64,000 bases of DNA from NCBI GenBank assembly GCA_030615855.1, contig JAUWYL010000001.1, positions 139,008 through 203,007 on the forward strand. Direction: 5' to 3'. This stretch comes from a bacterium (GTDB taxonomy: Bacteria; UBP18; UBA7526). A program made the translations under genes and the position numbers. The notes below the pieces were generated by a model that worked only from the letters and a program-made list of their open reading frames with translations, was not told where the DNA came from and made no database searches. Below are positions 1 to 48,554 of the stretch, one piece after another (position 1 is the stretch's first letter; every line of letters starts with the position of its first letter).

Positions 1-149
1 GAAATTTGTTGCATTCATTGTCCGATCGGACACAAGTTGCAACATTTCTTTTAATTCCCTCTGTTCGTACTTAAATTTATCCGCAACAATCTGCGTTCAT
101 TATGCCCGGGCAGTATGCAATAAGAAAAAATCCGCGTCTAAAATTTTTC

Positions 150-178
150 TTGACATTACTAATTTTTAGTGCTTTAAT
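150..178 (+). promoter_or_regulatory. sigma70-like promoter (TTGACA-17-TTTAAT) upstream of the pdaD leader
   Basis: TTGACA at 150-155, 17-nt spacer, TTTAAT at 173-178. It is followed by a ~160-nt leader with nested inverted repeats. Confidence 0.45.
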
Positions 179-345
179 TATTCTGTAAAATTGATTCTTT
201 GACTTTTTTACTTTCCTACTTTCCTACTTTTTACCCCGTTAGAGATGATAGGCAGTTTAAACAGAGGTAACAGAAATGCTTTTAATAGGATAATCAGAAA
301 GAAGCATTTCCTATCTCTAACGGGGTTTACTTCTACTGGAGGTGG

Positions 346-984
346 GTGATGTATGTTCCAACCAAAGTATGCCTGACCAAGGGAGTGGGGAAGCATAAGG
401 AGAAACTGACCAGTTTCGAGCTTGCCCTGCGTAACGCTCAAATTGCAAAGTATAATATAGTAAATGTCTCGAGCATCATTCCTCCTGCCTGCCAGCTCAT
501 TCCCTTAGCAGAAGGACTGAAATATCTTGCTCCCGGACAGATCATCCACTGCGTAATGAGTAAGAACGCTACCAATGAGCCCCACCGTCTCATCGCTGCC
601 TCCATTGGGGTGGCCGTCCCCAAAGACCCTAACCAGTATGGCTATCTCTCAGAGCACCACTCTTGTGGAGAGACGGAACAGAAAGCCGGGGATTATGCCG
701 AAGATCTGGCGGCCTATATGCTGGCTACCATCTTAGGGGTAGAGTTTGAGATTGGGACGAGTTACGATGAGGAGAAGGAACTCTGGAAGATTAGTGGTCA
801 GACAGTGAAGACTACTAACATTACCCAGTCTGCTATTGGAGACAAGGATGGGCTCTGGACTACGGTCTTAACCGCTGCCATCCTCATTCCTCTGATGAAG
901 ATACCCGAGATAAAACCAGCAGAAGCAAAGGAGGAAGCCAAGATAGAAGTACCAGAGGTAAAGAAGGAGCCGGTAAAAGTTTGA
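346..984 (+). CDS. pdaD: pyruvoyl-dependent arginine decarboxylase with C-terminal hydrophobic/KE-rich extension
   Basis: N-terminal TKGVGKHKEKLTSFELAL and the NIVNVSSIIPP segment match the PdaD self-cleavage Ser-Ser region. It is translationally coupled to the agmatinase. Confidence 0.65.
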   Translation: MMYVPTKVCLTKGVGKHKEKLTSFELALRNAQIAKYNIVNVSSIIPPACQLIPLAEGLKYLAPGQIIHCVMSKNATNEPHRLIAASIGVAVPKDPNQYGYLSEHHSCGETEQKAGDYAEDLAAYMLATILGVEFEIGTSYDEEKELWKISGQTVKTTNITQSAIGDKDGLWTTVLTAAILIPLMKIPEIKPAEAKEEAKIEVPEVKKEPVKV

Positions 985-1871
985 CTTCTAATAACTTCGG
1001 AGATATCGAGAAGGAATTCTCTGATTTTGAAAAATCCAGAGTAATCATCCTTCCTGTTCCCTATGAAGCGACGACTACTTATCGGAAGGGGACAAAAAGA
1101 GGACCAAAAGCAATCATTAAAGCTTCTCAGAATATGGAACTCTATGATGAGGAGACAGATTCTGAACCCTATAAGATAGGTATTCATACCCTAAAAGAAT
1201 TTAAAGAAGGTTTTGATAATCCCCAAAAGATGATCAAGGCCCTGGCAGATAGAGTCCAGGGCCTTTTTTCTTCGGAGAAATTGGTCATCGCTTTAGGTGG
1301 AGAGCACACTATTGCCTTGGGAATGGTAGCGGGCTTAAGGAGAGAAGAAAGGAATTTCTCTCTCCTTATCTTAGATGCCCATGCTGACTTAAGGGATTCC
1401 TATGAGGAAACGAAGTATTCCCATGCCTGTGTGGCGCGGAGGCTAATAGAAGAAAACAGAATTTTTCAGGTGGGAATAAGAAGCCTCTGCCAGGAAGAAG
1501 CGGACTTTATCAAAAAGAAGAATTTGAAACTCTTCTATGCCAAGAATATTGTGGGCAGGGAAGACTGGATGAAAAAAGTCATCTCCCGCCTTTCGAACAA
1601 GATATATCTTTCTATTGATTTAGACTTCTTAGACCCTTCCATTATGCCTGCTGTAGGGACCCCGGAACCTGGCGGCCTAGGATGGTATGAAACCCTAAAG
1701 TTCCTGCGCTTATTAACAAAAGAGAAGGAAATCCTAGGCATTGATGTCGTAGAACTCTGCCCTACCCCTCTTGACATATCCGTGCCCATCCGTGTTTCTA
1801 ATTCGTGCCCATCCGTGTTTACTGCTGCAAAACTCATCTACAAACTCATCGCCTACCTCACCACTATCTAA
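981..1871 (+). CDS. speB: agmatinase (arginase/ureohydrolase family)
   Basis: Motifs GGEHTIALG, LDAHADLRDSYE and SIDLDFLDPSIMPAVGTPEPGGL are typical Mn-binding ureohydrolase signatures. The C-terminus reads into a short tandem repeat. Confidence 0.8.
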   Translation: MTSNNFGDIEKEFSDFEKSRVIILPVPYEATTTYRKGTKRGPKAIIKASQNMELYDEETDSEPYKIGIHTLKEFKEGFDNPQKMIKALADRVQGLFSSEKLVIALGGEHTIALGMVAGLRREERNFSLLILDAHADLRDSYEETKYSHACVARRLIEENRIFQVGIRSLCQEEADFIKKKNLKLFYAKNIVGREDWMKKVISRLSNKIYLSIDLDFLDPSIMPAVGTPEPGGLGWYETLKFLRLLTKEKEILGIDVVELCPTPLDISVPIRVSNSCPSVFTAAKLIYKLIAYLTTI

Positions 1872-1984
1872 CCTCAGCACATCTAAAACATTCCAAGAAA
1901 ATTCCGTTTTTATAACATTCCTCCTCGATTGGACCTTTCGCGCGAATGGGCGAACAGTTAAAGTAATACTTAACCCTGACTGTC

Positions 1985-2115
1985 TTCGTATCTTCGAAGA
2001 TTGGAAGACGAAAGTAAAAGGTTCGAGGCGCAACTCTTTCTTTGCCCCGGTTTATTTAGAACCTCCTTTCTTTATTTTTTTCTCTTTCTATTTTCAAATT
2101 CTTAAGAATTTGGAA
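1985..2115. repeat. dispersed ~125-nt intergenic repeat, copy 1 (second copy at 7291-7410)
   Basis: cttcgaagattggaagaYgaaagtaaaaggttcgagNcgcaac...aaattcttaag is shared between the two loci. Confidence 0.7.
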
Positions 2116-2365
2116 ATATACAACAAAGTGTCTATTAAACCTATAGTAGGCATTCGCTCGGCTAAAGACCCGCAAAGGTCTTTAGTAGATGAGCAGAGCG
2201 AAGCGCTCATCGCCATGCGAAAGTGAAAAGTCGGAAGAAATTGGCAACGATTTTTTGTTTGCATCCTGATGAAATCAAAATTTGTTTGTTTTTCGGCTCT
2301 GAATGTGGTAAAATTACTTGTGGAGGTGCGGGAATGAACCCCGCACCTTTAGACAGGGGTAAGAA

Positions 2366-3862
2366 ATGAATATAAAAAGGTGCGGGATAAAGAAGGCTTT
2401 GATTTTGGCCACACTTTCCATAACTCTTTTGGGTTCAGTTCTTCATGCTCGAGTTCAAAAGACCCAGGATACACCAAAGAAAGAGATCAGAAGACCAGCG
2501 GTAGCTGGAGCCTTCTATCCCGGGAATAGACTCTTTCTTCAGAGACAGGTGGATGGATTCTTGGCAAAGGCAAAGAAGGTAGAGTTAGCAGGGGAGTTAA
2601 TTGCTTTAATCTCTCCTCACGCTGGCTACATCTATTCCGGACCGGTAGCCGCCTATTCCTATAAACAGTTAAAAAGAGAAGATTTTGATACCGTGATCTT
2701 GATTGGTCCCAGCCATCGTGTTGGTTTTGCTGGGGCTTCTATTTATAATCAGGGCCCTTATCAAACGCCCTTGGGCTTGGTAGAAGTTGATTCTGATTTA
2801 GCAAATAAAATTATTGCTCAAGATAAGAACATTAGGTATATCCCTCAAGCGCATATCAGGGAACACTCCTTAGAGGTTCAACTGCCCTTTTTGCAGAGGA
2901 CATTGAAGGATTTTAAAATCATTCCCATTCTCGTTTCTGATTCCTCTTTAAAGAACTGTCAGACTTTGGCAGACGCTATTTTTAAGAGTATAGAAGGAAA
3001 GAAGGTCTTAATCATTGCCAGTACCGACCTATCCCATTACCATCCTTATAAGGAAGCCTGCCGGCTGGATAAGATAACCTTAGATGCTATCATGACCTTG
3101 AATCCAGAGGAGGTGGCTAAGAAGGGCGATATGTGTGGCAAGGCAGCGGTCTTAACCACCATCATGCTTGCTAAGAAATTGGAAGCAGATAAAGTAATTA
3201 TTTTAAAGTATGCCAATAGCGGAGATACCGCTGGGCCAAAGGATGGAGTGGTGGGTTATGGCGCGGTTGCCATTGTAAAGAAAGGAGAAAAAAAGATGAA
3301 GGGAGTCTATTTTAAAGAAGAGAGAGAAGAGTTATTAAAGATTGCCCGGGATTCTATTAAAAGTTTTCTTACTACCAGAAAGCCGCCCAGGATAGAGACC
3401 GAGAACCCGAAACTAAAGCAGAAGCGTGGAGCCTTCGTTACCCTGAGAAGGGGAGAGGTCTTGAGGGGCTGCATCGGTTTCATCGAACCCCTCTTCCCCC
3501 TTTATCACGCGATAAGCGAGTGCGCCATATCTGCGGCCACTAAGGATATCAGATTCCCGCCAGTAACTGTAGGGGAATTACCCAAGATCACTATTGAAAT
3601 CTCCGTTTTATCTCCAACAAAGAGAGTGGCCACTGTCGATGAGATTAAGATGGGGGTTCATGGGGTAGTGGTAAAGAAGGGATTAAATCAAGGGATATTC
3701 TTGCCTCAGGTGGCAACTGAGACTGGCTGGAGCAGGGAAGAATTCTTAAGCCACTTATGCAGCGGGAAGGCCGGGCTTCCTCCCGATGCTTGGAAAAATG
3801 AGGATATTGAAATCTATATCTTTACTGTAGAGAAATTTGAAGACGCGAATATCCGCGAATAA
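2366..3862 (+). CDS. AmmeMemoRadiSam system protein B (Memo-like) fused to an AMMECR1 domain, with N-terminal signal-peptide-like segment
   Basis: N-terminal half AGAFYPG...ISPHAGYIYSG...STDLSHYH is Memo-like. C-terminal half RGAFVTLRRGEVLRGCIGF is AMMECR1-like. A hydrophobic N-terminus precedes both. Confidence 0.65.
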   Translation: MNIKRCGIKKALILATLSITLLGSVLHARVQKTQDTPKKEIRRPAVAGAFYPGNRLFLQRQVDGFLAKAKKVELAGELIALISPHAGYIYSGPVAAYSYKQLKREDFDTVILIGPSHRVGFAGASIYNQGPYQTPLGLVEVDSDLANKIIAQDKNIRYIPQAHIREHSLEVQLPFLQRTLKDFKIIPILVSDSSLKNCQTLADAIFKSIEGKKVLIIASTDLSHYHPYKEACRLDKITLDAIMTLNPEEVAKKGDMCGKAAVLTTIMLAKKLEADKVIILKYANSGDTAGPKDGVVGYGAVAIVKKGEKKMKGVYFKEEREELLKIARDSIKSFLTTRKPPRIETENPKLKQKRGAFVTLRRGEVLRGCIGFIEPLFPLYHAISECAISAATKDIRFPPVTVGELPKITIEISVLSPTKRVATVDEIKMGVHGVVVKKGLNQGIFLPQVATETGWSREEFLSHLCSGKAGLPPDAWKNEDIEIYIFTVEKFEDANIRE

Positions 3863-3938
3863 TAATTGCATTTTTAATCTGTGATCTGTGAGGATCTGTA
3901 GTAAATCTGTGATTATCTGTGTATAAAAGGAGGCGGAG

Positions 3939-4268
3939 ATGGCTGAAGAGGAGAAGAAGGAAGAATTGAATTATCAGTTTGTGAGCCTCATCTTTTCCCT
4001 CCAACAAGCGGCCATGGCCCAAATGGGCAAGATAGCCAATCCGGCTACGGGCAAGATGGAGAAGAATCTCGTCCAGGCAAAGGCCACCATAGACATGCTT
4101 GAGATGCTGAAAGAGAAGAGTGAAAGCAACCTCACTGATACTGAGCAGAAAATAATATTAAATACCCTGGACAATCTCTATCTTAACTATGCCGATGAAG
4201 TGGAGAAGGAGGGCAAGAAAGAAGAGAAGCCCAAGGAAGAAAAGGAGAAAGGAGGTGAGAAGAAATGA
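3939..4268 (+). CDS. small acidic protein, DUF1844-like
   Basis: FVSLIFSLQQAAMAQMG core resembles DUF1844. The C-terminus is KE-rich. Confidence 0.4.
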   Translation: MAEEEKKEELNYQFVSLIFSLQQAAMAQMGKIANPATGKMEKNLVQAKATIDMLEMLKEKSESNLTDTEQKIILNTLDNLYLNYADEVEKEGKKEEKPKEEKEKGGEKK

Positions 4269-5038
4269 GACTAAGAATAGTCACTGCCTTGGTTTTGATT
4301 TCAGCCCTGGCTTTTATTCCCACCATAGCGAAGGCCCAGACCTCTGAGAGTAATGAAGAGGAACAGACTATCTCTGTAACCAGTGAAGGAAAGGTCAAGG
4401 TGACTCCAGACGTTGCCTATCTCCTGTTAGGGGTAAAAACCCAGGCCCTCTCTGTTCAAGAAGCCTTAAAAGAAAACAACCGCGTCATGACCTTGGTAAC
4501 AAAGGAGTTAAAAGCGAAAGGGATTAAGAATGAGAACATAAGAGTAATCGGACCAGTAATGAGCCGAGCAGGAAGGATTTATTTCCAAAGGGAGGCCCCT
4601 ACTGGATTTGAAGTATCTAAGAAGATCATCGTTACCTTGGATAAGATTGGCTCTGATCCGGATAAGATGGGAGAGAGGGTAGCGGAGATCATCGATGGAG
4701 CAACCAAAGCCGGAGCCAATATCTGGGGGAAAGAAAAAGGATATGATCCCAGGGAAAGGCCCTGTGTTCTCTTCTCTGTCAAGGAAGTAGAGAAATATAG
4801 GGAGCAGGCTTTAGAAAAGGCCCTTGCCGAAGCCCGACCTCAAGCAGAGAAGATTGCAGCCACCAAGGGATTGAAAATTAAGAAGATAAAGTCCATATCC
4901 AAGTGGAAACATGCCTCAGGACCTGATAGCTGGTGGGAAAGAGGATATGGAAAGGACTTACCTGAGGGACCGAAGGTTAATGCTCTGAAAGATATTGAGA
5001 TCTCTGTCTCCATCAGGGTGAGTTATACTGTGGAGTGA
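4265..5038 (+). CDS. SIMPL/DUF541 family secreted protein
   Basis: Signal peptide plus ISVTSEGKVKVTPDVAYLLLGV, the hallmark of SIMPL/BP26-like proteins. Confidence 0.65.
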   Translation: MRLRIVTALVLISALAFIPTIAKAQTSESNEEEQTISVTSEGKVKVTPDVAYLLLGVKTQALSVQEALKENNRVMTLVTKELKAKGIKNENIRVIGPVMSRAGRIYFQREAPTGFEVSKKIIVTLDKIGSDPDKMGERVAEIIDGATKAGANIWGKEKGYDPRERPCVLFSVKEVEKYREQALEKALAEARPQAEKIAATKGLKIKKIKSISKWKHASGPDSWWERGYGKDLPEGPKVNALKDIEISVSIRVSYTVE

Positions 5039-5084
5039 GCGATAGGGGGCCAGGGAATTTCCTGGCCCCTTCCAAAGTAAGAAG

Positions 5085-5819
5085 ATGAAAATAAAGATCG
5101 GTTTCGCATTTTTATTACTAATGGTGTCTTCTTTATCCCTTCTTGCTCAGGAGAAAACCATCTCCGTCATTGGTGAAGGAAGCATTAAAGTAAAGCCAGA
5201 TGTTGCCTATCTTCTCTTGGGAGTGGAGAATCAGAACTCCTCTGCCCAAGATGCTTTAAGAGAGAATAGGGCTATAGTTGAGAGGGTAATAAGGAGATTG
5301 GGCGAAGCTGGAGTTCGGCAGGAGTCTATTGTTATCCATAATCACACCCTTTCTCCCTTCTTCAAGTTCCAGTATTTTCCGCCCAAGATATCCTTAGCCG
5401 GTTTCCAAACCTTTAGAAGAATAGTGATAACCTTAGATGGGTTCGAAGGGACAGAGAGATATATTGACATTGCTACTAAAGCCGGTGCCAATGTCTGGGG
5501 AAGGAAAGGGCTCTCCAGTTTCATCTTGGAAGGAGAGAATACCTGCATCCTCTATTCTGTAAAGGATTACAAGAGATACGAATCCCAAGCATTGAAAAAG
5601 GCCCTAAAAGAGGCAAGGAAGAAGGCAGAAGAAATTGCAGTTAGTTCAGGGAAGAAGATAAAAGGAATGAAATCCTTCTCTGAAGAGACCTATGAATGGA
5701 GATCCGTTGACCTCTGGCTAAAGAAGTTCGAAGAAGGACTTCCTTCCGGGCCGAAGGTGGCAAACCTGAGAGATATTGAAATCTTAGTCACTGTAAGAGC
5801 CACCTATACTCTCGAGTAA
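5085..5819 (+). CDS. SIMPL/DUF541 family secreted protein (paralog)
   Basis: Signal peptide plus ISVIGEGSIKVKPDVAYLLLGV. It is a tandem paralog of the preceding gene. Confidence 0.65.
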   Translation: MKIKIGFAFLLLMVSSLSLLAQEKTISVIGEGSIKVKPDVAYLLLGVENQNSSAQDALRENRAIVERVIRRLGEAGVRQESIVIHNHTLSPFFKFQYFPPKISLAGFQTFRRIVITLDGFEGTERYIDIATKAGANVWGRKGLSSFILEGENTCILYSVKDYKRYESQALKKALKEARKKAEEIAVSSGKKIKGMKSFSEETYEWRSVDLWLKKFEEGLPSGPKVANLRDIEILVTVRATYTLE

Positions 5820-5826
5820 ATTAATT

Positions 5827-6975
5827 ATGAGATTGGATAGAAGAATAGCAAGGACCTTGGGAGCAACCCTCCTCCTTGCTTTTTTTATCATTATAGGAGC
5901 ACTTATCATGAATACTAGAAAACCACACAACCCCAGAACTGGTGCTACGCCCAAGAAAGGGGAGGTTAGACTCCATCCTGCGATGTACTGGGAGAAGTTA
6001 CCAGGGAAGAGAGTCAGGTGTAACCTATGTTTCAGGAAGTGCGTAACCAGGGATGGGGAGATCGGCTTCTGTAGGAACAAGATAAATAAGAATGGAGAAT
6101 ACTATACCCTGGTCTATGCCATCCCCTGTGCCGTCCAGATAGACCCCATTGAGAAGGAACCCCAGCATCATATGCTTGCCGGAAGCAGGATATTATGTAT
6201 TGGAACCGCCAGCTGTAACTTCAGATGTAAGTTCTGCCACAACTGGCATATGTCCCAGAGGAATATCTACCAAACATTAAACTATGACCTTCCACCAGAG
6301 AAAATTGTGGAACTGGCCATTGAGAATAAATGTCCCACCATCTCCTTTACCTATAACGAGCCCACCGTATTCTATGAGTATATGCTCGACATCGCAAAAC
6401 TTGCTCAGAAGAAAGGAATAAAGATACTCTTCCACTCCAATGGCTCCATGTCTCCCGGACCATTAAGAGAACTTCTGAAATATAGCGATGCGGTGACCAT
6501 CGACCTCAAGGGATTTACCAATAAATTTTATAGCGAGGCCTCATCAGCTAAACTGGAGCCGGTTCTTGAGACCCTAAAAATTATTAAGGAAGAGGGGAAG
6601 TGGCTTGAGGTCGTGAATCTCATCATTCCTACTCTGAATGATAATCCCAGAGATATCAGAAGGATGTGTGAATGGATAAAAGAGAACCTAGGGGATGGGG
6701 TTCCCATCCACTTCAACAGGTTCTCCCCTTCCTATAAACTGCAGAACCTTCCCCCCACGCCAATAAAGACCTTAGAAGGAGCAAGAGATATTGCTAAAGA
6801 GGTGGGCATAAAGTATATCTATATCGGGAACGTCCCGGGACACGAAGGGAACTCCACCTACTGCCCAAAATGCAAGAAGAGATTGGTGAGAAGGATCCAC
6901 TTCGCCATCTTAGAGAATAAGATAAAAGAGGGAAGATGCTCCTTCTGCGGAGAAAAGATCCCTGGCCTTTGGTAA
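5827..6975 (+). CDS. AmmeMemoRadiSam system radical SAM enzyme (PFL-activase-like); start possibly at internal Met
   Basis: CNFRCKFCHNW CxxxCxxC cluster and the upstream CNLCFRKC...GFC motif. The longest ORF adds a hydrophobic N-terminal segment. An internal AGGAG-ATG at MNTRKPH is an alternative start. Confidence 0.7.
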   Translation: MRLDRRIARTLGATLLLAFFIIIGALIMNTRKPHNPRTGATPKKGEVRLHPAMYWEKLPGKRVRCNLCFRKCVTRDGEIGFCRNKINKNGEYYTLVYAIPCAVQIDPIEKEPQHHMLAGSRILCIGTASCNFRCKFCHNWHMSQRNIYQTLNYDLPPEKIVELAIENKCPTISFTYNEPTVFYEYMLDIAKLAQKKGIKILFHSNGSMSPGPLRELLKYSDAVTIDLKGFTNKFYSEASSAKLEPVLETLKIIKEEGKWLEVVNLIIPTLNDNPRDIRRMCEWIKENLGDGVPIHFNRFSPSYKLQNLPPTPIKTLEGARDIAKEVGIKYIYIGNVPGHEGNSTYCPKCKKRLVRRIHFAILENKIKEGRCSFCGEKIPGLW

Positions 6976-7290
6976 AACGCAGATACTCAACGTATTTCAT
7001 TTGCCTTGAGGAATAGTCGCAGATATTGACGCAGACTGCCGCAGATATTTGAGACAGACGGGCACTAGTCAGTTTGGCGAAAATCTACATAGTTTTCCCT
7101 TCTCTTTCGTTTTTAAATTCCCGCCTTTTTGTCTAATTCCTTTGTTTCCCATTAAACCATTCGCGCGCCATGCCAGAGGCAGGTCCGCCAAACTAACGGC
7201 GGACAGGCGCCTTTTGAGCCAGAGGCTCATCCGCCTCAGGCGGAGGCGGAAATGGGCAAGTGTTCGAAGTAACGCTTAACTCTAACTATC

Positions 7291-7410
7291 TTTGAATCTT
7301 CGAAGATTGGAAGATGAAAGTAAAAGGTTCGAGTCGCAACTTCTTTTCTCACCAACCTGTTTAGAACCTTCTTTCTTTATTTCCCCCATATTTTTAAATT
7401 CTTAAGCCCC
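7291..7410. repeat. dispersed ~125-nt intergenic repeat, copy 2
   Basis: Near-identical to 1985-2115. Confidence 0.7.
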
Positions 7411-7463
7411 GAAGGAGAACAGAGTTCCCTTCGGGGTAAAAATTTGGAAACATCAAAAATCAC

Positions 7464-7492
7464 TTGACAGATTCCAAAATATAGGATATAAT
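7464..7492 (+). promoter_or_regulatory. sigma70-like promoter TTGACA-17-TATAAT
   Basis: TTGACA at 7464-7469 and TATAAT at 7487-7492. It sits ~40 nt upstream of the AbiEii-like gene. Confidence 0.55.
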
Positions 7493-7532
7493 CTATATTG
7501 ACTATAGTTTTTAAACTATAAAGGGGTAAAAG

Positions 7533-8243
7533 ATGGATGTGAAAATTCGTGAGGCACAGTTAAAAATATTAAAGATATTTTCTCATCTTTCTAAAAGTTT
7601 TGCCTTATCGGGCGGCTCAGCATTAGAACTCTACTATTTGAAGCACAGATTTTCCCGCGACCTGGACTTTTTTTCACCAAGATACGATTTGGAAGAAATA
7701 AAAAACCTGATTTCGGCATTCAGTAAAGGTATTGGAAAATCCATAGAATTGGAGAATGAATTTATTGCCAACAATCGGGCAAGAGTCCAATTCTACGTTG
7801 CACCAATTAAAGGCTCTAGATTCCCATTAAAAATTGATTTTATTGAAGATGTATTTTTCACCAAGCCAACTATTAGAAAATTTAAGAGCATTCCGGTATA
7901 TGATGTAAAGCATATCTATTTCCAAAAGATAGTTACTATTACTGGAACGCAACTTATAAAAGATAGCACTGGCCGGGAAGTGACTACTGGGAGAAGGGAA
8001 GTGCGGGATATGGTTGATATTTATTATCTTTCCCAAAAGGTAAAACCGCTGCATAGATTTTTGAGGACGCTTTCTAAGGAGCAACAGAGAGGGATGGTTC
8101 AGTGGTACCGCAGTTTTTCCCGGCAGGAATTCAAATTAGGATTTTTAGACCTGGATATTTATGATAAAAAATTGGATGCTTCAAAGGCAATTATCTATCT
8201 GGAAGACGAGATAAAGAAATTCGTAAGCGAGGTAGTGAAGTGA
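7533..8243 (+). CDS. AbiEii/AbiGii-type nucleotidyltransferase (type IV toxin-like)
   Basis: ALSGGSALELYYLKHRFSRDLDFFSP matches the GGTAL...HR.S.DLDF signature of the AbiEii NTase family. Confidence 0.55.
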   Translation: MDVKIREAQLKILKIFSHLSKSFALSGGSALELYYLKHRFSRDLDFFSPRYDLEEIKNLISAFSKGIGKSIELENEFIANNRARVQFYVAPIKGSRFPLKIDFIEDVFFTKPTIRKFKSIPVYDVKHIYFQKIVTITGTQLIKDSTGREVTTGRREVRDMVDIYYLSQKVKPLHRFLRTLSKEQQRGMVQWYRSFSRQEFKLGFLDLDIYDKKLDASKAIIYLEDEIKKFVSEVVK

Positions 8244-8746
8244 ACCTAAAAAAATATTACTGGGGATTAAGCGAGAAAGCCATTAAAGAGACCGAAGAAA
8301 TAATCAGAAATCCCCAACATCCCAAATTTCTCTCACGGATTTTTACCTTACTTTCCAGGTGCGACAAGCCGGAGGAATTATTTTCCCTGATAAGCAGAAA
8401 ACAATTTATAGAGGTATGGCCTAAAGTGCGGCGATACTGGATAAAAAGGTCTCAGGCAAAGGATTTTCGTTCCTGGTGGGAAACCATTTATGAGCAGCTT
8501 CTGGAAGAAGTTAAAGGGAGAAAGAGACCGAAAGGCGAACCAATGAAGATTTTTAAACATACTGGGGAAGTAATCAAAAAAGCAAGGATTGAAAAAGGTT
8601 GGAGTCAATCCGACTTTGCCCGAAGGGTGGGCATGAAACAGCCGGATATTTCAGCAATAGAGAAGGGTAAGAAAAATATTACTTTGGAAACCCTGGCTCG
8701 ATTATGTAAGATATTGGACATCAAAAATATACCAGTAAAGGAATAA
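8240..8746 (+). CDS. protein with C-terminal XRE-type HTH (putative partner of the NTase)
   Basis: 4-nt overlap with the upstream gene. C-terminal KGWSQSDFARRVGMKQPDISAIEKGKKNITLETLARLCKIL is a Cro/C1-type HTH. Confidence 0.5.
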   Translation: MNLKKYYWGLSEKAIKETEEIIRNPQHPKFLSRIFTLLSRCDKPEELFSLISRKQFIEVWPKVRRYWIKRSQAKDFRSWWETIYEQLLEEVKGRKRPKGEPMKIFKHTGEVIKKARIEKGWSQSDFARRVGMKQPDISAIEKGKKNITLETLARLCKILDIKNIPVKE

Positions 8747-8818
8747 AACTTTACCCGCCTGCCCTTATTTTTGAGCGTTAGCGAAAAAAGAGACAACTTG
8801 CTTGGCTCATTTTTAAAT

Positions 8819-8841
8819 GCCCGCCTCTTCGGCGGGTTTTT
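8819..8841 (+). terminator. intrinsic terminator (GCCCGCC-loop-GGCGGG-TTTTT) within a dispersed repeat
   Basis: GC hairpin followed by a T-run. The same module occurs at 22688-22730. Confidence 0.6.
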
Positions 8842-8949
8842 GCTTACAGCAAAAAACATAAGAATTTGGAAACAGTGGTAATGGGCTTGTTATACCTATA
8901 ATAAGCATTCGCGCGAATGCGAAAGTGAAAAGTTGGAAGAAATTGAGGG

Positions 8950-11256
8950 TTATCTCGTTTTGGGGGTGGAGGAAAGGAGGAAGAAGGTGGAGAGGTTGAA
9001 GAGGGAGACGATGAGGCAGGTTTGAATGATGCCCAGGATGGGGATTAAGAGGATGCTGGCCAGCAAGGCCCCCAGACAGGAGCCGAATAAATCCACGCCA
9101 TAGAGAAGTCCGGCGGTCTTTCCCACTTTCTGACCCTTTAGATAAATCTTGTTTGCTAAAGGGAATTCCAGGCCGACCAGAAGGCCGGTAAGGGCTACTA
9201 AAATAGGGAAGACTATCTGAGATAGGGGATAGAGGTAGACCCCTTTTACTTTAGAAAGAGCGATTAAGGAAAGGGGGAGAAGGAGAGCATAGATTGCTAC
9301 CGCTCCCTCCAATCGAGAAAGGACCAATAAATCTCTTTTTATTTTGGGCAGTTGCTTGATCATGAAGAGGGCACCAGCGGTCAGGCCCACCATGAATAAA
9401 GCCACGATCAATCCAATCCGGGAGTAAAGATAGCCATATAATACCTGAAAGGCAAGGATTAAGACTACCTCTAAGGTGATCCCGGCAAAACCAGTAGTAG
9501 CAATGGCTAAGGGAGTAAAGCTCCTTCTCATCCTGGGAGATCTTCTACTTAAGAAGATGAGAATAAAGACGAGCACTGCCAGAATGGTGGCGAAGTGCCA
9601 GACATTTAGTTTAGTAAATGAAGCAAATAGTTTTCTGGAGGCGGGATAGAAATAACTTGCCCAGAGAACGATATCGTAGTAGTAAGAGATGGGCTGGAAG
9701 TCGAAGTTCTTCTTTGTTCCTTTTGCCTCATCTAAGGCGCCAAGGAGATAGGAGATTTTTCTAGGCGTGAACTGATAGGAGATGTGATAGGGGGTCAGGA
9801 AGTCGGTCTTTATCTTTCTTTCAGAGAACCTTTTATTCAAGATTTGGTCATCATAGGTGAGAATTTTTTCGCTGGGTGAGGCAAATAAGAGGAGATACTC
9901 TCCCGGAACGGCCACTATATTGGGGAAAATATCTTTCAGGGTATAGTAGATAGAGGCGTTGAAATCCCCCATCTCTTCCCCTAAGTAGGCCTCCTTGGAG
10001 GAGATTCCCAGAGAGATTATACCTTCGGGTTTTAAAATATCTCTTACTTCTTTAAAAAACTCTCTAGTATAGCATCTATTGAGCTGTGCGGTACAGGGGT
10101 CGGGAAGGTTGACCATGACCAGGTCATACTTCTCTTTTACCCTCTTTACGAAGAGGCGGCCATCGAGATAATGGACCTTTACCCTTTCATCCACTAAGGC
10201 CTTTCGATCACTTGGAGGAAGATACTTCTTTGCTAATCGGATGAGCTCAGGATCGAGTTCTACATAGTCCACAGAATCCGGGTTATGCTTTAGAATCTCC
10301 TGTAAGCCCCCACTCACCCCGCCTCCGATGAGAAGAATCTTTTTTGGCTTGGGATGCTCCAGCATAGTGAGATGAGTGACATACTCATTGAACTCCCTAT
10401 CAGAGGTGGTGAAGGATAGGAGGCCGTTCTCATAGAAACTATATTGATCAGTCCTCTTTGTGGTTACCAGATTTCCGTAGATGGAGTTTTTTTCTTCAAC
10501 TAATTGATAACCCCTCCAACGCCACCTAGTAGATTGGTCCTGAAGATTATCTATCTTAGAGGAGCCGAAGAGATAGATACTTAAAGCAAGAAGAAGAGTT
10601 AGGATGGCAAGGGGCTTACGTGATGTGGGATGCCTGCCTGCTGGCGAGGCAGGTGGGATGTGGGATGTGGAACGTATTGTGGCAAGGAGGAAGGCGGCGA
10701 AGAGATTGAGGGAGCCGATTAAAAGGGCACAGTGGAAGGAATGGAGGAGATAGACCAAGAGGAAGGTGAAGATAATCCCCCCTGCCATATCCCCCAAGGC
10801 ATCGTAGATATAGACCCTTCCAATGGCCTTGGGCGCCTCTCTGATTATCTGATTGTAGACCCGGCAGCCCAGGGCAAACTGGAAGCCGATTACCAGACAT
10901 AAGGGAGCAAGGACCAGAAAGGAGAAGTAGAGCATGGGGAAAGGTCCAATGATCTCTCCCAGACCAACACCGATAATACTCTTGCTCGTCCTTACCAATA
11001 ATATCTCTAAGGGCAAGAAAAGCCAGATCAGGAATTGGGTGAGAATGAAGACCTCTATCCCTCTTTTTATCCTATCCGCCCTTCTTCCTAAGAACCAGCT
11101 TCCCATCCCCACCCAGAAGAGCCAGGAAGCAAGGATGAATCCGATGGAGAGCTCATTCCCATAGAAGGTAATGAGTAACTCCCTGACCAGAACTACCTGG
11201 CTGACCACGCTGCTGAAGCCTACCAGGATTAGGGCAAAGATTAGAATCTTCTTCAT
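8950..11256 (-). CDS. spermidine synthase-like aminopropyltransferase fused to a polytopic N-terminal membrane domain
   Basis: C-terminal LLIGGGVSGGLQEILKH...VDYVELDPELI...KYDLVMVNLPDP resembles SpeE. The N-terminal ~200 aa are multi-TM. Confidence 0.6.
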   Translation of the reverse strand: MKKILIFALILVGFSSVVSQVVLVRELLITFYGNELSIGFILASWLFWVGMGSWFLGRRADRIKRGIEVFILTQFLIWLFLPLEILLVRTSKSIIGVGLGEIIGPFPMLYFSFLVLAPLCLVIGFQFALGCRVYNQIIREAPKAIGRVYIYDALGDMAGGIIFTFLLVYLLHSFHCALLIGSLNLFAAFLLATIRSTSHIPPASPAGRHPTSRKPLAILTLLLALSIYLFGSSKIDNLQDQSTRWRWRGYQLVEEKNSIYGNLVTTKRTDQYSFYENGLLSFTTSDREFNEYVTHLTMLEHPKPKKILLIGGGVSGGLQEILKHNPDSVDYVELDPELIRLAKKYLPPSDRKALVDERVKVHYLDGRLFVKRVKEKYDLVMVNLPDPCTAQLNRCYTREFFKEVRDILKPEGIISLGISSKEAYLGEEMGDFNASIYYTLKDIFPNIVAVPGEYLLLFASPSEKILTYDDQILNKRFSERKIKTDFLTPYHISYQFTPRKISYLLGALDEAKGTKKNFDFQPISYYYDIVLWASYFYPASRKLFASFTKLNVWHFATILAVLVFILIFLSRRSPRMRRSFTPLAIATTGFAGITLEVVLILAFQVLYGYLYSRIGLIVALFMVGLTAGALFMIKQLPKIKRDLLVLSRLEGAVAIYALLLPLSLIALSKVKGVYLYPLSQIVFPILVALTGLLVGLEFPLANKIYLKGQKVGKTAGLLYGVDLFGSCLGALLASILLIPILGIIQTCLIVSLFNLSTFFLLSSTPKTR

Positions 11257-11475
11257 TCCTCCTCCTCACTTTCATCCTATCATACTAAGCCCAAGACTTC
11301 AACCCCGCACCTTTTATCCATTCAAAGTATTAAGATAAAAAATGAACCCCGCCCCTTCCTTGTCTGTGGTCGGGATTTGGGGAGAAGAAGGAGCGGGGTG
11401 AATATTGAGAAGGTGCGGGGTTAATTTGTTTCTAAGTAAAAGATGTGATACAATTGAAATGAAAGAGAGGTAGAG

Positions 11476-12165
11476 ATGGAAGAGGAAAAAAAGGTCCTGG
11501 AAGATTTTGGGGAGGTTCTTTCTCTGACGAAGAAGTATATTAAGCAGGAGAAGGAGAAGGGACTAAGAGAAATTAGCTACAAGCCACAGGCTACAAGCCA
11601 CAAGCTACAAAAAGAAACTTTAGAAAAATTGAGGAAGGAAGTGGGGGGATGTAAGAAGTGTCCTTTATGGAGGGAGAGGAATAACGTTGTCTTTGGTGAA
11701 GGAAGCCCCAATGCCAAGCTAATTCTGGTGGGAGAGGCACCGGGAAGGAATGAGGACCTGCAGGGAAAGCCCTTTGTGGGAGCCGCCGGGCAGTTACTAA
11801 CCAAGATATTAGCATCCATCGGTCTTAAAAGAGAGGATGTTTTTATCGGAAATATTTTGAAGTGCCGCCCACCGATGAATAGGAATCCCAAGCCAGAGGA
11901 GATTAAGGCCTGTTGGGGCTATCTGGATAGGCAGTTAAGAATAATAAGACCCAGGATCATTCTCGCTATGGGAACTTTTGCTGCCCAGACCCTGTTAAGA
12001 ACAGATGAGAGGATAGGTAGATTGAGAGGAGAGTTCCATCCTTTCGCTAAGGGTGTAAAACTGCTCGCTACCTATCATCCAGCAGCCCTACTGCGTAACC
12101 CAGGCTACAAAAGAGCGGTCTGGGAAGACATGAAACTCCTCAAAAAAGAATACGAAAAATTATAG
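11476..12165 (+). CDS. udg: uracil-DNA glycosylase, family 4
   Basis: GEGSPNAKLILVGEAPGRNED...GNILKCRPP.NRNP are family-4 UDG motifs. It contains an in-frame 7-nt-unit repeat (11581-11612). Confidence 0.8.
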   Translation: MEEEKKVLEDFGEVLSLTKKYIKQEKEKGLREISYKPQATSHKLQKETLEKLRKEVGGCKKCPLWRERNNVVFGEGSPNAKLILVGEAPGRNEDLQGKPFVGAAGQLLTKILASIGLKREDVFIGNILKCRPPMNRNPKPEEIKACWGYLDRQLRIIRPRIILAMGTFAAQTLLRTDERIGRLRGEFHPFAKGVKLLATYHPAALLRNPGYKRAVWEDMKLLKKEYEKL

Positions 12166-12190
12166 TAAGTTCAGTTATCCGTGATTATCC

Positions 12191-14722
12191 GTGAATAATC
12201 TGTGCCTATCCGTGTTTCAGGAGAGAGAAGTGAGTAAATATATTGAGGTGGCGGTGGGATTGCCCATAGATAGACTCTTCCACTATGCCGTTCCCCCCCG
12301 TCTGGGAGAAGAGGCGGCCCTGGGGAAGAGGGTCCTCATCCCCTTTGGCTCTCGCCAGATAACAGGATACATTGTGGGATCTATCGAAGAATCCCCTATG
12401 GATAGAATAAGAGAGATCATAGACGTCATTGATCGCGAACCGGTTCTCTCTTTCAAGATGTTAAAACTTACTAAATGGATTTCAGACTATTATCTTGCTC
12501 CCTGGGGACAGATGATTGAGGCCGCTCTGCCCATTGGGATGAAGATGGAGAGTAAGAGAGTCATCAAATTGAAAGAAATTGATTTAACTAAGGTTATTCC
12601 TGAGATAGAAAAGAGATCTCCTGACCAGGCACAGGTCTTGAGAATTCTGGAAGGGAAGAAGGAGATGAGCCTGGAAGGGATCATGCGCAAGATGAAGAAG
12701 AAAGGGGTCTACTCTGCGGTGAATGCCCTGGAGAAGAAAGGTCTGGTAGAGAGCAGGCTGGTATTAAAGGAGAGACTGGTCAAGCCCAAGACAATCCAAA
12801 TTGTGAAGGCCGTGCCTGCCTTGTCGGCAGACAGGCCTACCGGCAGGCAGGCAAAAGAAATCTCAGAGGAAGTGCTTAAGAAATTAACGAAAGGGGCTCC
12901 TAAACAGGCCCAGGCTTTGAAGATATTAAGAGAAACCAGAGAAGAAATGACCCCCCTTCAATTGGCAAAGAAGGTCAGAACATCAACTTCTACCATTAAG
13001 AGTCTAAAAGAAAAGGGGCTCTTGAATTATGTTCTTAGGGAAGTGAGGCGCAGGGTAAAAGAGATCAAAGAGTTAGAGAAAGAGATTGGGAAATTAAAGT
13101 TGACTGAGGAGCAGAGGAAGGCCTTGGGAGCAATAGAGAGAAGCATTGACCAAAAGAAAGGTGAGGTCATTCTATTACAGGGGCCCAGAGAGAGCGGAAA
13201 GGAGAGAATCTACTTAGAGGCCGTTACCCACTCTCTTTCACAAGGCAAAGGAGCCATCTTGCTCTATCCTGAGATCATATTCGCCTCAAGGGCCTTTGCC
13301 TGTTTCACATCCTATTTTGGCGACCGGGTAGCCATACTCCATAGCGAGTTATCGCCCGGGGTGCGCTATGATGAATGGCGGAGGATAAAGGAGGGGATGG
13401 CGGATGTAGTTATTGGCACCCGCCTGGCTATCTTTGCCCCCTTAAAAAACTTGGGTCTGATCATTATTGATGGTGAAGAAGAAACTTCTTATAAACAGGA
13501 AGAGGTTCCCAGATATCATACTCGGGAAGTAGCCTTGAGAAGAGCAAAAGAGTCTGGGGCCACAGTAATCTTAGCAAGCGGTTCTCCTACCTTAGAGTCC
13601 TATTATGAGGTTAAGAATGAAGATTATGGATTAGTGAGGTTATCTCAAACACTCGATAAGAAGGGACTTCCCGAGGTAAGACTAATCGATATGCGCCTGG
13701 AGCTGGTTCAGAAGAAGAACCGCTCCATCTTCTCCTTAGAGCTTCAGGAGGCCATGAGAAGGAGATTGGAGAGAAAGGGTCAGATCATTCTATTTCTGAA
13801 TAAAAGGGGATTTGCCTCCTTCATCCTTTGCCGGGAGTGTGGACATGTTCTACGCTGCCCCAACTGTAACCTGACTCTGACCTATCACTTTCCGGATCGC
13901 ATTCTGCGCTGCCATCACTGCAATTATTCTATAAGAACACCCAATATCTGCCCCAGATGTCGGGGATACTATATGAGGCCCTTCGGCATCGGGACCCAGA
14001 GAGTGGAAGAGGCGGCGAGGAAATTATTTCCCAAAGCAAGAGTGATGCGCATGGATATCGATACTACTAAAAAGAAAGGCTCCTATGAGAGAATAACCAA
14101 GGCTTTTGAAGAAGGAAGGGTGGATATTTTGGTGGGAACCCAGATGGTGCTTAAGGGAATAGAGTTTAAGGGCCGGGTTTTATTGGGAATGGTCTCTGCA
14201 GATACCGCCCTGAACCTTCCTGACTTCCGGGCAACGGAGAGGACCTTTGCCCTTCTTTCTCAGGTCGTGGGAAAGGCGGGAAGGGGGAGTCTCCCGGATG
14301 AGGTGATCATCCAGACCTATACCCCAGAACACTATGGCATAAGGGAGGTCTGTTTTGGAGACTACGACTCCTTCTATAACCGGGAGATAGAATATAGAAA
14401 GGAACTCTCCTATCCTCCCTTCAGCCATTTAATCAACATCTTGATAAGGAGCAATATAGAAAGCCAGGCCCAGAGGGTGGCCTCCAGCCTGGCGAGTGCT
14501 TTGATCAGAGCGAAGAAGAAAAAGCCCCTTCAGATACTTGGCCCCTCCCCTGCTCCTTTGACCCGGGTTAAGGGACAATACCGTTGGCAAGTGGCCCTGA
14601 AGGGGAAGGATATTGAAAACTTGAGGAGGGTCTTGCGCCCCATACTAAAGAGAGAAAAAACCCTCACACGCTATAGCAATGTCTTTATTAGCGTAGATGT
14701 CGATCCGGTAGCCTTACTTTAA
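12191..14722 (+). CDS. priA: primosomal protein N' (PriA helicase) with inserted winged-helix-like region
   Basis: Helicase motifs and a Cys-rich zinc-binding region CRECGH...CPNC...CHHC...CPRC. Confidence 0.85.
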   Translation: MNNLCLSVFQEREVSKYIEVAVGLPIDRLFHYAVPPRLGEEAALGKRVLIPFGSRQITGYIVGSIEESPMDRIREIIDVIDREPVLSFKMLKLTKWISDYYLAPWGQMIEAALPIGMKMESKRVIKLKEIDLTKVIPEIEKRSPDQAQVLRILEGKKEMSLEGIMRKMKKKGVYSAVNALEKKGLVESRLVLKERLVKPKTIQIVKAVPALSADRPTGRQAKEISEEVLKKLTKGAPKQAQALKILRETREEMTPLQLAKKVRTSTSTIKSLKEKGLLNYVLREVRRRVKEIKELEKEIGKLKLTEEQRKALGAIERSIDQKKGEVILLQGPRESGKERIYLEAVTHSLSQGKGAILLYPEIIFASRAFACFTSYFGDRVAILHSELSPGVRYDEWRRIKEGMADVVIGTRLAIFAPLKNLGLIIIDGEEETSYKQEEVPRYHTREVALRRAKESGATVILASGSPTLESYYEVKNEDYGLVRLSQTLDKKGLPEVRLIDMRLELVQKKNRSIFSLELQEAMRRRLERKGQIILFLNKRGFASFILCRECGHVLRCPNCNLTLTYHFPDRILRCHHCNYSIRTPNICPRCRGYYMRPFGIGTQRVEEAARKLFPKARVMRMDIDTTKKKGSYERITKAFEEGRVDILVGTQMVLKGIEFKGRVLLGMVSADTALNLPDFRATERTFALLSQVVGKAGRGSLPDEVIIQTYTPEHYGIREVCFGDYDSFYNREIEYRKELSYPPFSHLINILIRSNIESQAQRVASSLASALIRAKKKKPLQILGPSPAPLTRVKGQYRWQVALKGKDIENLRRVLRPILKREKTLTRYSNVFISVDVDPVALL

Positions 14723-47915: not shown

Positions 47916-48457
47916 GGAGGGGCGGGGTGAATATCGGTATATGTGGAAAAGCCGGGACGGGAAAGACAGCGGTCGCTGACCATTTAGTCAACAAGTATGG
48001 CTATAAGAGGTATTCCATTGCGGACGAGGTAAAAAGGATTGCCGTAAGGCTTTTCAAAATGAAGGAAAAGGATAGGAAACTTTTACAAGATATTGGGTTT
48101 AAGATGAGGGAAATCAGGCCCAGCGTCTGGATCGATTTTCTTATTGCCCAGATAAAAGGAAAGGACAAGGTCGTGGTAGATGATATACGCTATCCCAATG
48201 AATATGAAGCACTAAAGAAGGAGGATCTTAAGATAATAAAGGTGGTTGCTAATAGGGAAATCTGCATCAAGAGACTAACTGAAAGGGATGGGACGGCCGC
48301 CATTGAGAGATTGGATGACGAGAGCGAGACGGCCATGGATGATGTTAAGATAGAGAATATCCTGGATGGCAATCTTCCCTTAGAAAAGATGCTTAATCAG
48401 CTCGATAAGCTCCTGAAATCTCTAAACGCAGATGACCGCAGATCAAAACGCAGATGA
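47912..48457 (+). CDS. P-loop NTPase/kinase-like protein
   Basis: GICGKAGTGKT is a Walker A motif. Confidence 0.45.
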   Translation: MRRGGVNIGICGKAGTGKTAVADHLVNKYGYKRYSIADEVKRIAVRLFKMKEKDRKLLQDIGFKMREIRPSVWIDFLIAQIKGKDKVVVDDIRYPNEYEALKKEDLKIIKVVANREICIKRLTERDGTAAIERLDDESETAMDDVKIENILDGNLPLEKMLNQLDKLLKSLNADDRRSKRR

Positions 48458-48554
48458 CCGCAGATCATCAGCGATAATCGGCGTAATATATCAGCGGCTA
48501 ACGCCTCAAGGTAAACGAAGTGCGTTGAGTGCCAGCGTTTAAAGGAGGAATGAG

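Follow-up and report, generated by a model that had tools for sequence, protein, structure and literature searches.

A candidate envelope-targeted AmmeMemoRadiSam system with a conserved membrane partner in a UBP18 bacterium

Organization of the Locus

The DNA analyzed here is a stretch of 64,000 nucleotides (nt), called the window below, from a bacterium of the GTDB lineage UBP18; UBA7526 (contig JAUWYL010000001.1 of assembly GCA_030615855.1). All coordinates are positions within the window. Near its beginning lies an AmmeMemoRadiSam system, which brings together protein B (Memo-like), protein A (AMMECR1) and a radical S-adenosylmethionine (SAM) enzyme, hereafter rSAM. The AmmeMemoRadiSam system is defined computationally in NCBIfam/TIGRFAMs.

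A preliminary description of positions 2366-6975 had proposed such a system in an atypical arrangement, with B and A fused behind a hydrophobic N-terminus (B/A) and the rSAM displaced by a DUF1844 gene and two SIMPL genes. Its five open reading frames (ORFs) are all where it had placed them, on the plus strand (Table 1). The first check that it had named, a search with curated hidden Markov models (HMMs), was run and placed all three families. The genes for B, A and rSAM are co-oriented within 4.6 kb, and the cluster is kept in relatives.

Table 1. Genes at and around the AmmeMemoRadiSam locus, with their positions in the window.
Feature	Position	Strand	Basis or remark
Pyruvoyl-dependent arginine decarboxylase (ArgDC)	346-984	+	Upstream of B/A
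Agmatinase	981-1871	+	Upstream of B/A; start overlaps ArgDC stop
Memo-AMMECR1 fusion (B/A), 498 amino acids (aa)	2366-3862	+	ORF list, HMMs
DUF1844 protein, 109 aa	3939-4268	+	PF08899, 82.6 bits (cutoff 27)
SIMPL/DUF541 paralog 1, 257 aa	4265-5038	+	PF04402, 100.4 bits (cutoff 25.2)
SIMPL/DUF541 paralog 2, 244 aa	5085-5819	+	PF04402, 87.8 bits (cutoff 25.2)
AmmeMemoRadiSam radical SAM enzyme (rSAM), 382 aa	5827-6975	+	TIGR04337
AbiEii-like nucleotidyltransferase	7533-8243	+	Pfam labels on identical contig L001
Helix-turn-helix (HTH)/Xre-type gene	8240-8746	+	Overlaps AbiEii-like gene; Pfam labels on identical contig L001
Membrane partner, like the major facilitator superfamily (MFS) and SpeE, 768 aa	8950-11256	-	PF01564, NF037959, AlphaFold2 (AF2) model
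Uracil-DNA glycosylase family gene	11476-12165	+	PF03167 in relatives

The Memo-AMMECR1 Fusion and Its Predicted Signal Peptide

Residues 42-302 of the B/A protein correspond to protein B (TIGR04336, 290.9 bits, cutoff 26) and residues 322-491 to protein A (TIGR04335, 181.7 bits, cutoff 99). The Pfam scores are 226 bits for PF01875 and 190 bits for PF01871. The invariant Memo residues are present (H85, H117, H167, D221, H224, and C257). The AMMECR1 motifs RGCxG and DxRF, as defined in PMC2034487, are also present as R367-G-C369-I-G371 and D394-x-R396-F397, and they are invariant in 27 sequences.

The N-terminus, up to residue ~29, has the composition of a Sec-type signal peptide. By inspection, it consists of the n-region MNIKRCGIKK, the h-region ALILATLSITLLGSVL and a c-region HA|R, and the cleavage site is acceptable (LHA|R here, LYA|Q in orthologs). 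The signal is conserved in the orthologs P0002-P0016 with the pattern M(R/K)K..ILA.L.I..L...LYAQ. Orthologs 77-86% identical start at the equivalent of K9-K10 and have the M(R/K)K n-region, a hydrophobic h-region and LYA|Q. The sequence aGGGG precedes the ATG at 2366. The database copy of this protein (P0001) was called 13 aa shorter (485 aa), from a TTG. Despite this shorter call, the long start is considered real because the close orthologs keep the signal pattern.

The fusion has at least 8000 database matches, many of which are already named "protein B/protein A" by JGI. An N-terminal signal was found in 105 of the 117 closest full-length homologs: 65 are Sec-like, 19 have a lipobox and 21 have two consecutive arginines (RR). 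Thus, what had been described as atypical is the norm among thousands of homologs with respect to the fusion, and the majority state with respect to the signal.

Two variations on the B/A N-terminus were observed. In homologs such as P0026-P0045 (an Elusimicrobiota-like group), N-termini such as MCFRRTFLSFVFLFFCISS combine an RR-x-F-L motif with a lipobox, suggesting that some B/A proteins may be lipoproteins exported by twin-arginine translocation (Tat) and not Sec substrates. In many exported-type B/A proteins (P0069, P0077, P0097, P0108, and others; loci L098 and L099), an internal Met is conserved immediately in front of the Memo domain, as in ...KMNKQKFKKEEIRPPAV and ...GMKEIREPAV, and some homologs are annotated from there. 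It is conceivable that alternative initiation yields exported and cytoplasmic isoforms.

The Radical SAM Enzyme and Its N-Terminus

The rSAM matches TIGR04337 at residues 53-381 (349.4 bits, cutoff 220). The CX3CX2C motif (C130, C134, and C137) is invariant in a 30-sequence alignment. There are two further clusters of four cysteines, one N-terminal (C65, C68, C72, and C82) and one C-terminal (C346, C349, C371, and C374). The N-terminal sequence, MRLDRRIARTLGATLLLAFFIIIGALIM, contains an RR-containing hydrophobic anchor at aa 1-27, followed by an ATPK linker.

The ATG at 5827 has no Shine-Dalgarno sequence and is located 7 nt after the preceding stop; this gap is 1-11 nt in relatives. In five orthologs, the ATG and the frame are conserved with zero indels across the 27 codons. 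Their nucleotide similarity begins exactly at the ATG, the upstream DNA being unrelated, and third-position differences are enriched. A caveat is a second candidate start: codon 28, an internal ATG/GTG after GGAG, is conserved as well and was chosen by one gene caller (355 aa, L001). The short homologs P0164 and P0138, taken as cytoplasmic controls, are start miscalls with in-frame anchors upstream. Because nearly all homologs are extended and the short controls are miscalled, the long start is regarded as settled.

Judging from this conservation, both hydrophobic N-termini, that of B/A and that of the rSAM, are translated. The preliminary description had named downstream starts as its vulnerable point; the N-termini survived the start-site analysis, and the predicted signals support its idea of a membrane- or periplasm-associated system. 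The rSAM extension does not make the arrangement atypical: a hydrophobic N-terminus is present in 109 of the 120 closest homologs, and an anchor or a Tat signal is near-universal in the subfamily. Gene callers often truncate these N-termini, in the window genome too, so that many annotations do not show them.

The strict Tat consensus (RR-x-F-[LFIV]-[KRQSTNE]) is found in 27 of these 120 N-termini, against 0.17 expected from shuffled N-termini, and never in the remaining ~320 residues of the same proteins. Among the rSAMs of the surveyed loci, 53 of 122 have the strict motif, followed by a lipobox in 14 and by an AxA-like site in 30. Chloroflexota rSAMs show the Tat motif, a lipobox Cys and a Pro/Thr-rich tether, which is the layout of a surface lipoprotein. 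The Tat-type examples tested pass TIGR04337 at 315-354 bits. Family-wide, the N-flank of the anchor is more positive than the C-flank in 59 of 84 cases.

A linker motif, (V/I)T-x-A-(T/S)-P-K, recurs 10-20 aa ahead of the rSAM domain, in the stretch that follows the transmembrane (TM) anchor (aa 39-44 in the window, RTGATPKK). It occurs in 39/73 TM-type and 5/36 Tat-type homologs and could be a processing or docking site.

A Conserved Membrane Protein Paired with the Radical SAM Enzyme

The neighborhood was surveyed in 80 rSAM-centered loci from named genomes. The bacteria belong to Desulfobacterota, Chloroflexota, Cloacimonadota, Omnitrophota, WOR-3, Stahlbacteria, Spirochaetota, Planctomycetota, Sumerlaeota, Latescibacterota, Bacteroidales, Elusimicrobia, Atribacterota, and Eiseniibacteriota, and one Bathyarchaeota genome was included. 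In 44 of the 80 loci, a membrane protein of ~770 aa is encoded at most 300 bp from the rSAM gene, the stop and start frequently overlapping; in six more it lies no farther than 10 kb away. It is therefore present in 50 of the 59 loci that are informative, which represent more than 10 phyla and a Bathyarchaeota genome. It is absent from the other nine, which have adequate flanks; the remaining 21 of the 80 loci are too short to assess. A second set consisted of 86 B/A-centered loci from other lineages (36-52% identity), 29 of which contain the partner, typically in the order rSAM-B/A-partner(-). The rSAM is thus consistently paired with this membrane protein, which is a fourth conserved component. 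In the window, it was missed by the preliminary description; it lies just outside the range covered, on the minus strand. In relatives, the gap between rSAM and partner is only 188 bp (L012) and 615 bp (L002).

The presence of the partner is related to the N-terminus of the rSAM. Where the rSAM bears a signal, the partner is present in 74 loci and missing in 36, many of which are truncated; where the rSAM starts at the first Cys cluster, it is present in 0/8 loci (Fisher p=2e-4, phylogeny uncorrected). In five of these eight loci, an exported B/A adjoins the rSAM without N-terminal extension. Because exported B/A is still found there, the partner appears to track the export of the rSAM rather than that of B/A.

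Two loci without the partner have other membrane-related neighbors. In L178 (JGI Ga0326297_100161), the rSAM adjoins LpxB, BamA/Omp85, TamB and a DedA/VTT protein, and in L091, a type II secretion/pilus cluster adjoins B/A. These are envelope-biogenesis genes and would fit an envelope role.

The partner of the window matches PF01564 (107.4 bits, cutoff 22.9) and NF037959, "fused MFS/spermidine synthase" (69.3 bits, cutoff 40). It falls below the SpeE equivalog cutoffs (TIGR00417, 108.9 against 249.55; NF002956, 235 against 472). The AF2 model (predicted local distance difference test, pLDDT, 88.4; predicted template modeling score, pTM, 0.88) has seven TM helices, a SpeE fold at aa ~250-520 and seven more TM helices. 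The layout is six TM helices, TM7, a spermidine-synthase-like Rossmann domain, TM8 and six TM helices. TM1-6 and TM9-14 are homologous and in the same orientation (hhalign 99.4%, E=4.5e-20), which indicates that the membrane part is a 6+6 MFS-like duplication with TM7-domain-TM8 inserted centrally. The K+R densities of the successive loops in 45 homologs alternate (2.0/1.0/4.1/2.0/3.0/0/3.1/[domain]/3.2/0.1/4.1/0.9/2.5). With the positive-inside rule, this alternation predicts that the SpeE-like domain faces outward and is extracytoplasmic.

Foldseek and profile searches of PDB hit the soluble domain only, and its best match is the Thermus agmatine/triamine aminopropyltransferase 1UIR (profile E=2.6e-37; Foldseek TM-score 0.75 on target). 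Residues that bind the nucleotide are retained in the domain: the Gly-rich loop, the Glu for ribose (YxELDP) and an invariant Asp-Gly for adenine. The acidic residue of GGGD/EGG, which selects decarboxylated SAM (dcSAM), is lost (GGGVSGG in the window, SGGAGG in the family). So is the first catalytic Asp of D-x-x-D-P (NLPDP in the window, G-L-x-x-P-S in the family). The domain is predicted to bind an adenosyl group, and it lacks the catalytic residues of aminopropyltransferases.

Lineage-Specific Genes and Other Neighbors

The DUF1844 protein has no signal peptide and has a Lys/Glu-rich tail; its stop overlaps the next start (ATGA). It had no NCBIfam match and no match against PDB sequences. 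The two SIMPL proteins are paralogs, as had been proposed, with 42% identity (E=4e-55), and the DUF1844 assignment was likewise confirmed by PF08899. By inspection, both SIMPL proteins show the n-h-c layout of a signal peptide, MRLRIVTALVLISALAFIPTIAKA|Q in paralog 1 and MKIKIGFAFLLLMVSSLSLLA|Q in paralog 2, with the canonical cleavage sites AKA|Q and LLA|Q.

Relatives 85-93% identical keep the order B/A - DUF1844 - SIMPL - rSAM with 0, 1 or 2 SIMPL copies, and DUF1844 is present in all close relatives (L002, L005, L011, and L012). In the 86 B/A-centered loci from other lineages, DUF1844 was found in none and SIMPL in one, weakly. Among the 80 rSAM-centered loci, both are found in the window clade only. 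The neighborhood check thus contradicts the idea that these genes are conserved neighbors of the system.

ArgDC and agmatinase, which form a putrescine pathway directly upstream, are syntenic with the system in the window clade only, and so is the uracil-DNA glycosylase gene downstream of the membrane partner. A polyamine link with the spermidine-synthase-like protein downstream was rejected as a general feature, ArgDC and agmatinase being found in 0/86 B/A-centered loci and, among the rSAM-centered loci, in the window clade only. DUF1844, SIMPL, ArgDC and agmatinase are lineage-specific additions, not core parts.

For other lineages, flanking ORFs were clustered without bias, followed by Pfam verification and a test for shadow ORFs. 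A DUF362 protein with an RR motif abuts the core in 12 loci, in the order DUF362-rSAM-B/A-partner. A nitroreductase with an RR motif is adjacent in ~7 loci, a DsbD_2/CcdA-like protein in ~8 and a NapH-type polyferredoxin in 4, and RsmE adjoins B/A. The window has no DUF362, nitroreductase, DsbD_2/CcdA-like, NapH-type or RsmE neighbor. As a common theme, these neighbors would bring electrons to the outer side of the membrane or be redox-active there. A further candidate, a "DinB_2/rubredoxin" neighbor in 32 loci, was an artefact; nearly all were antisense shadow ORFs inside the membrane-protein gene, and only that in L086 is real.

The AbiEii/HTH pair is an insertion between the rSAM and the partner, outside the system. 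It has its own perfect sigma-70 promoter (12/12 match, 7464-7492) and a terminator-like hairpin nearby (8819-8837), and it looks like a toxin-antitoxin or abortive-infection pair. Another MazE/AbiEii set occupies this site in the relative L005, which suggests a hotspot for mobile modules.

Except for the promoter before the AbiEii gene, promoter and terminator scans gave nothing above the shuffled expectation. An Rfam scan of positions 1-12500 at E<=1 found no RNA family, and thus no riboswitch in the 495-bp gap upstream of B/A. Two strong GC-rich hairpins without a T-run and without an Rfam match were observed, ggggccagggaatttcctggcccc between the SIMPL paralogs (5044-5070) and ggtgcgggaatgaaccccgcacc at ~2326-2348, ~20 nt before the B/A start. 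A heptamer, ATCTG(Y)G, occurs in clusters of three to five copies at several intergenic sites (23 matches against 8.9 expected; 0/100 shuffles reach 23). The clusters are at 3877-3921 (+), 6978-7046 (-), 48427-48465 (-), and also at 12198. Two of them flank the operon, one after B/A and one, in the opposite orientation, after the rSAM. The heptamer could be a dispersed repeat like the repetitive extragenic palindromic (REP) elements or an operator array of a regulator.

Proposed Function and Alternative Explanations

The best explanation is that the locus encodes an AmmeMemoRadiSam system of a widespread, envelope-targeted variant, in which the membrane partner supports an exported rSAM. On the sequence evidence, we give this reading a probability of about 0.5. 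The envelope-targeted form spans anaerobic bacteria and at least one archaeon.

The mechanism we infer is as follows. The rSAM, with its iron-sulfur (Fe-S) clusters pre-loaded, would be placed on the outer face of the cytoplasmic membrane, in many lineages via Tat. Together with the secreted Memo-AMMECR1 protein, it would modify a substrate in the envelope, which could be a lipid/isoprenoid or a protein. The MFS-like/SpeE-like partner would support the exported rSAM, most plausibly by passing or presenting SAM across the membrane, or alternatively by handling the adenosyl by-products of SAM. Electrons or redox protection would come from lineage-specific accessories, which are the two SIMPL proteins and DUF1844 in the window clade and, in other lineages, Tat-nitroreductase, Tat-DUF362, CcdA-like and NapH-like proteins.

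A more detailed version states that this rSAM clade acts outside the cytoplasm through Tat, as a soluble, lipid-anchored or signal-anchored enzyme, that the disabled SpeE-like domain of the 14-TM partner hands over SAM, and that Memo-AMMECR1 is the extracytoplasmic partner acting on an envelope lipid or protein. With all of these particulars, the proposal is tentative and should be regarded as unlikely.

Several points weigh against the envelope-targeted reading. The localizations of all components are predictions. We know of no extracytoplasmic Fe-S assembly, SAM pool or low-potential reductant. With the homologs tested, the scores of the curated Tat-signal HMMs fall slightly short of the cutoffs (TIGR01409, 15.7/16.7; PF10518, 21.4/22.7), and the window rSAM has no match to any of them; hence the Tat call is motif-based. 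The motif of the window rSAM, RRIART, deviates from the consensus (S/T-R-R-x-F-L-K) and its h-region is very hydrophobic, the RR being kept in five orthologs. The flanks of the anchor are charge-balanced in the window clade (+3/+4 versus +4/+5). Since the flank charges are balanced and RRIART is non-consensus, the outward orientation of the window rSAM is deduced from homology. In about half of the rSAM homologs the anchor is without RR, so that Sec would have to translocate a domain containing three Fe-S/Cys clusters.

For the partner, no transporter was found among the top 50 Foldseek PDB matches of the full-length AF2 model, which were only SpeE domains, and its membrane domain has no Pfam MFS match. 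With no solved structural relative among the top matches and no MFS match, a role in transport is conjectural. That the partner correlates with the signal is based on only eight cytoplasmic-type loci, with phylogeny uncorrected. The five loci with exported B/A and a cytoplasmic-type rSAM imply that B/A and rSAM need not share a compartment.

The strongest alternative is a membrane-tethered but cytoplasmic rSAM. Its helix, in the window and in other non-Tat homologs, would be N-out/C-in at the inner face, with access to cytoplasmic SAM and reductant, and the enzyme would either modify the B/A pre-protein before Sec export, as a maturase like anaerobic sulfatase-maturing enzymes or HxsB/HxsC, or act on a lipid-linked substrate, which would be flipped and then completed by B/A on the outside; the partner would in that case be the flippase or a pathway enzyme. 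This arrangement sidesteps the supply of SAM, Fe-S clusters and reductant outside the cell. The balanced flank charges in the window clade agree with it, and the five loci in which exported B/A lies beside an extension-less rSAM indicate that cross-compartment operation exists. The nearest relatives of TIGR04337 are protein-activating enzymes (pyruvate formate-lyase activating enzyme, NrdG, and the YjjW activase), and a precedent from experiments is the HXS system, in which cytoplasmic rSAMs mature a protein of the periplasm (PMC13128918). However, orthologs 55-65% identical carry export signals, namely canonical Tat motifs together with a lipobox or AxA site and with Pro/Thr tethers, and it is unlikely that orthologs work on opposite sides of the membrane. 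In addition, the N-flank is more positive across the family, an N-terminus with four Arg is poorly suited to translocation, and the predictions place the SpeE-like domain outside, as they do every other signal-bearing component. Taken together, this alternative is a serious contender, but we consider it rather unlikely.

It is improbable that the membrane protein is a polyamine aminopropyltransferase of the ArgDC/agmatinase operon, near the rSAM without a functional link. The window and relatives do encode ArgDC and agmatinase directly upstream, an aminopropyltransferase (1UIR) is the nearest solved structure, and public annotations name the partner spermidine synthase. Against this, the two genes are limited to the window clade, whereas the adjacency of rSAM and partner spans more than 10 phyla. 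The partner is below every SpeE equivalog cutoff, the acids of GGGDGG and D-x-x-D-P are replaced, and its SpeE-like domain is predicted to be outside the cytoplasm, away from dcSAM.

An ordinary cytoplasmic system with mis-set starts (TTG codon 14 in B/A and ATG codon 28, after GGAG, in the rSAM being the true ones) is very improbable: automated callers chose these shorter starts and the internal ATG/GTG is conserved in five rSAM orthologs, but the upstream ATG, frame and hydrophobicity are conserved next to unrelated 5' DNA, the B/A n-region (K/R-K) and h-region are kept in orthologs starting at the equivalent position, the long rSAM ORF closely follows the preceding stop in the window and in relatives, and extensions occur in nearly all distant homologs, where "short" calls proved to be wrong, an anchor lying in frame upstream.

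From archaea to humans, Memo and AMMECR1 are conserved, and they are linked to disease; the best access to what they do is through the bacterial three-gene system. If the more detailed version of the envelope-targeted reading is true, it would give the Memo and AMMECR1 families a cellular address. It would also provide the first extracytoplasmic radical SAM pathway and the first dedicated device for exporting or presenting SAM. Radical SAM chemistry outside the cytoplasm would be very unusual, and an rSAM acting there would challenge the confinement of this chemistry to sites with SAM, Fe-S assembly and low-potential reductants. An envelope address for a branch found in many phyla would narrow the search for substrates to envelope lipids or proteins rather than RNA bases. 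The previously unlinked membrane protein, with a predicted outward adenosyl-binding domain, is a concrete and testable component.

The system itself is already known, and the export-addressed form and the fourth partner look new. Full-text literature searches turned up no account of exported rSAMs, of signal peptides on bacterial Memo/AMMECR1 or of the membrane partner; an earlier mention in Burroughs et al. 2019 is possible.

Comparison with Known Systems

The locus agrees with the AmmeMemoRadiSam system (TIGR04335/TIGR04336/TIGR04337) in passing all three models well above cutoff, in its co-oriented genes and in its intact motifs. It differs in that B and A are fused and carry a predicted signal peptide, and in that the rSAM has an N-terminal anchor or Tat signal lying outside the 349-position HMM, whose match starts at aa 53. 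It differs also in having a fourth conserved component, the MFS-like/SpeE-like membrane protein, and three intercalated lineage-specific genes.

The partner shares the fold and the nucleotide-binding residues with SpeE (PF01564; 1UIR, 3ANX, 1INL, and 3O4F), and it passes the cutoff of NF037959, "fused MFS/spermidine synthase". In contrast to SpeE, it is below all equivalog cutoffs and has lost the acidic residue and the first catalytic Asp. Its domain forms an insert that is flanked by TM7 and TM8 in a protein of 14 TM helices, with a predicted outward orientation, and a second 6-TM half comes after it.

With Tat-dependent Fe-S proteins, such as the Rieske protein, the rSAM shares an RR motif ahead of a hydrophobic segment and the nature of a cofactor-containing Fe-S protein. 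The homolog P0234 matches the Rieske Tat-signal model weakly. No radical SAM enzyme was found among the substrates in the Tat literature searched; tail- and signal-anchored Tat substrates are known (PMC10924467).

The chemistry can further be compared with rSAM enzymes that serve exported proteins. Anaerobic sulfatase-maturing enzymes are cytoplasmic rSAM maturases of exported proteins. HxsB and HxsC of the HXS anti-phage system are likewise cytoplasmic rSAM maturases of an exported protein (PMC13128918). In both, radical SAM chemistry is tied to a periplasmic protein, and they resemble the minority loci in which a signal-less rSAM accompanies an exported B/A. Their rSAMs are signal-less and act before export, whereas the rSAM described here bears a predicted signal in nearly all homologs.

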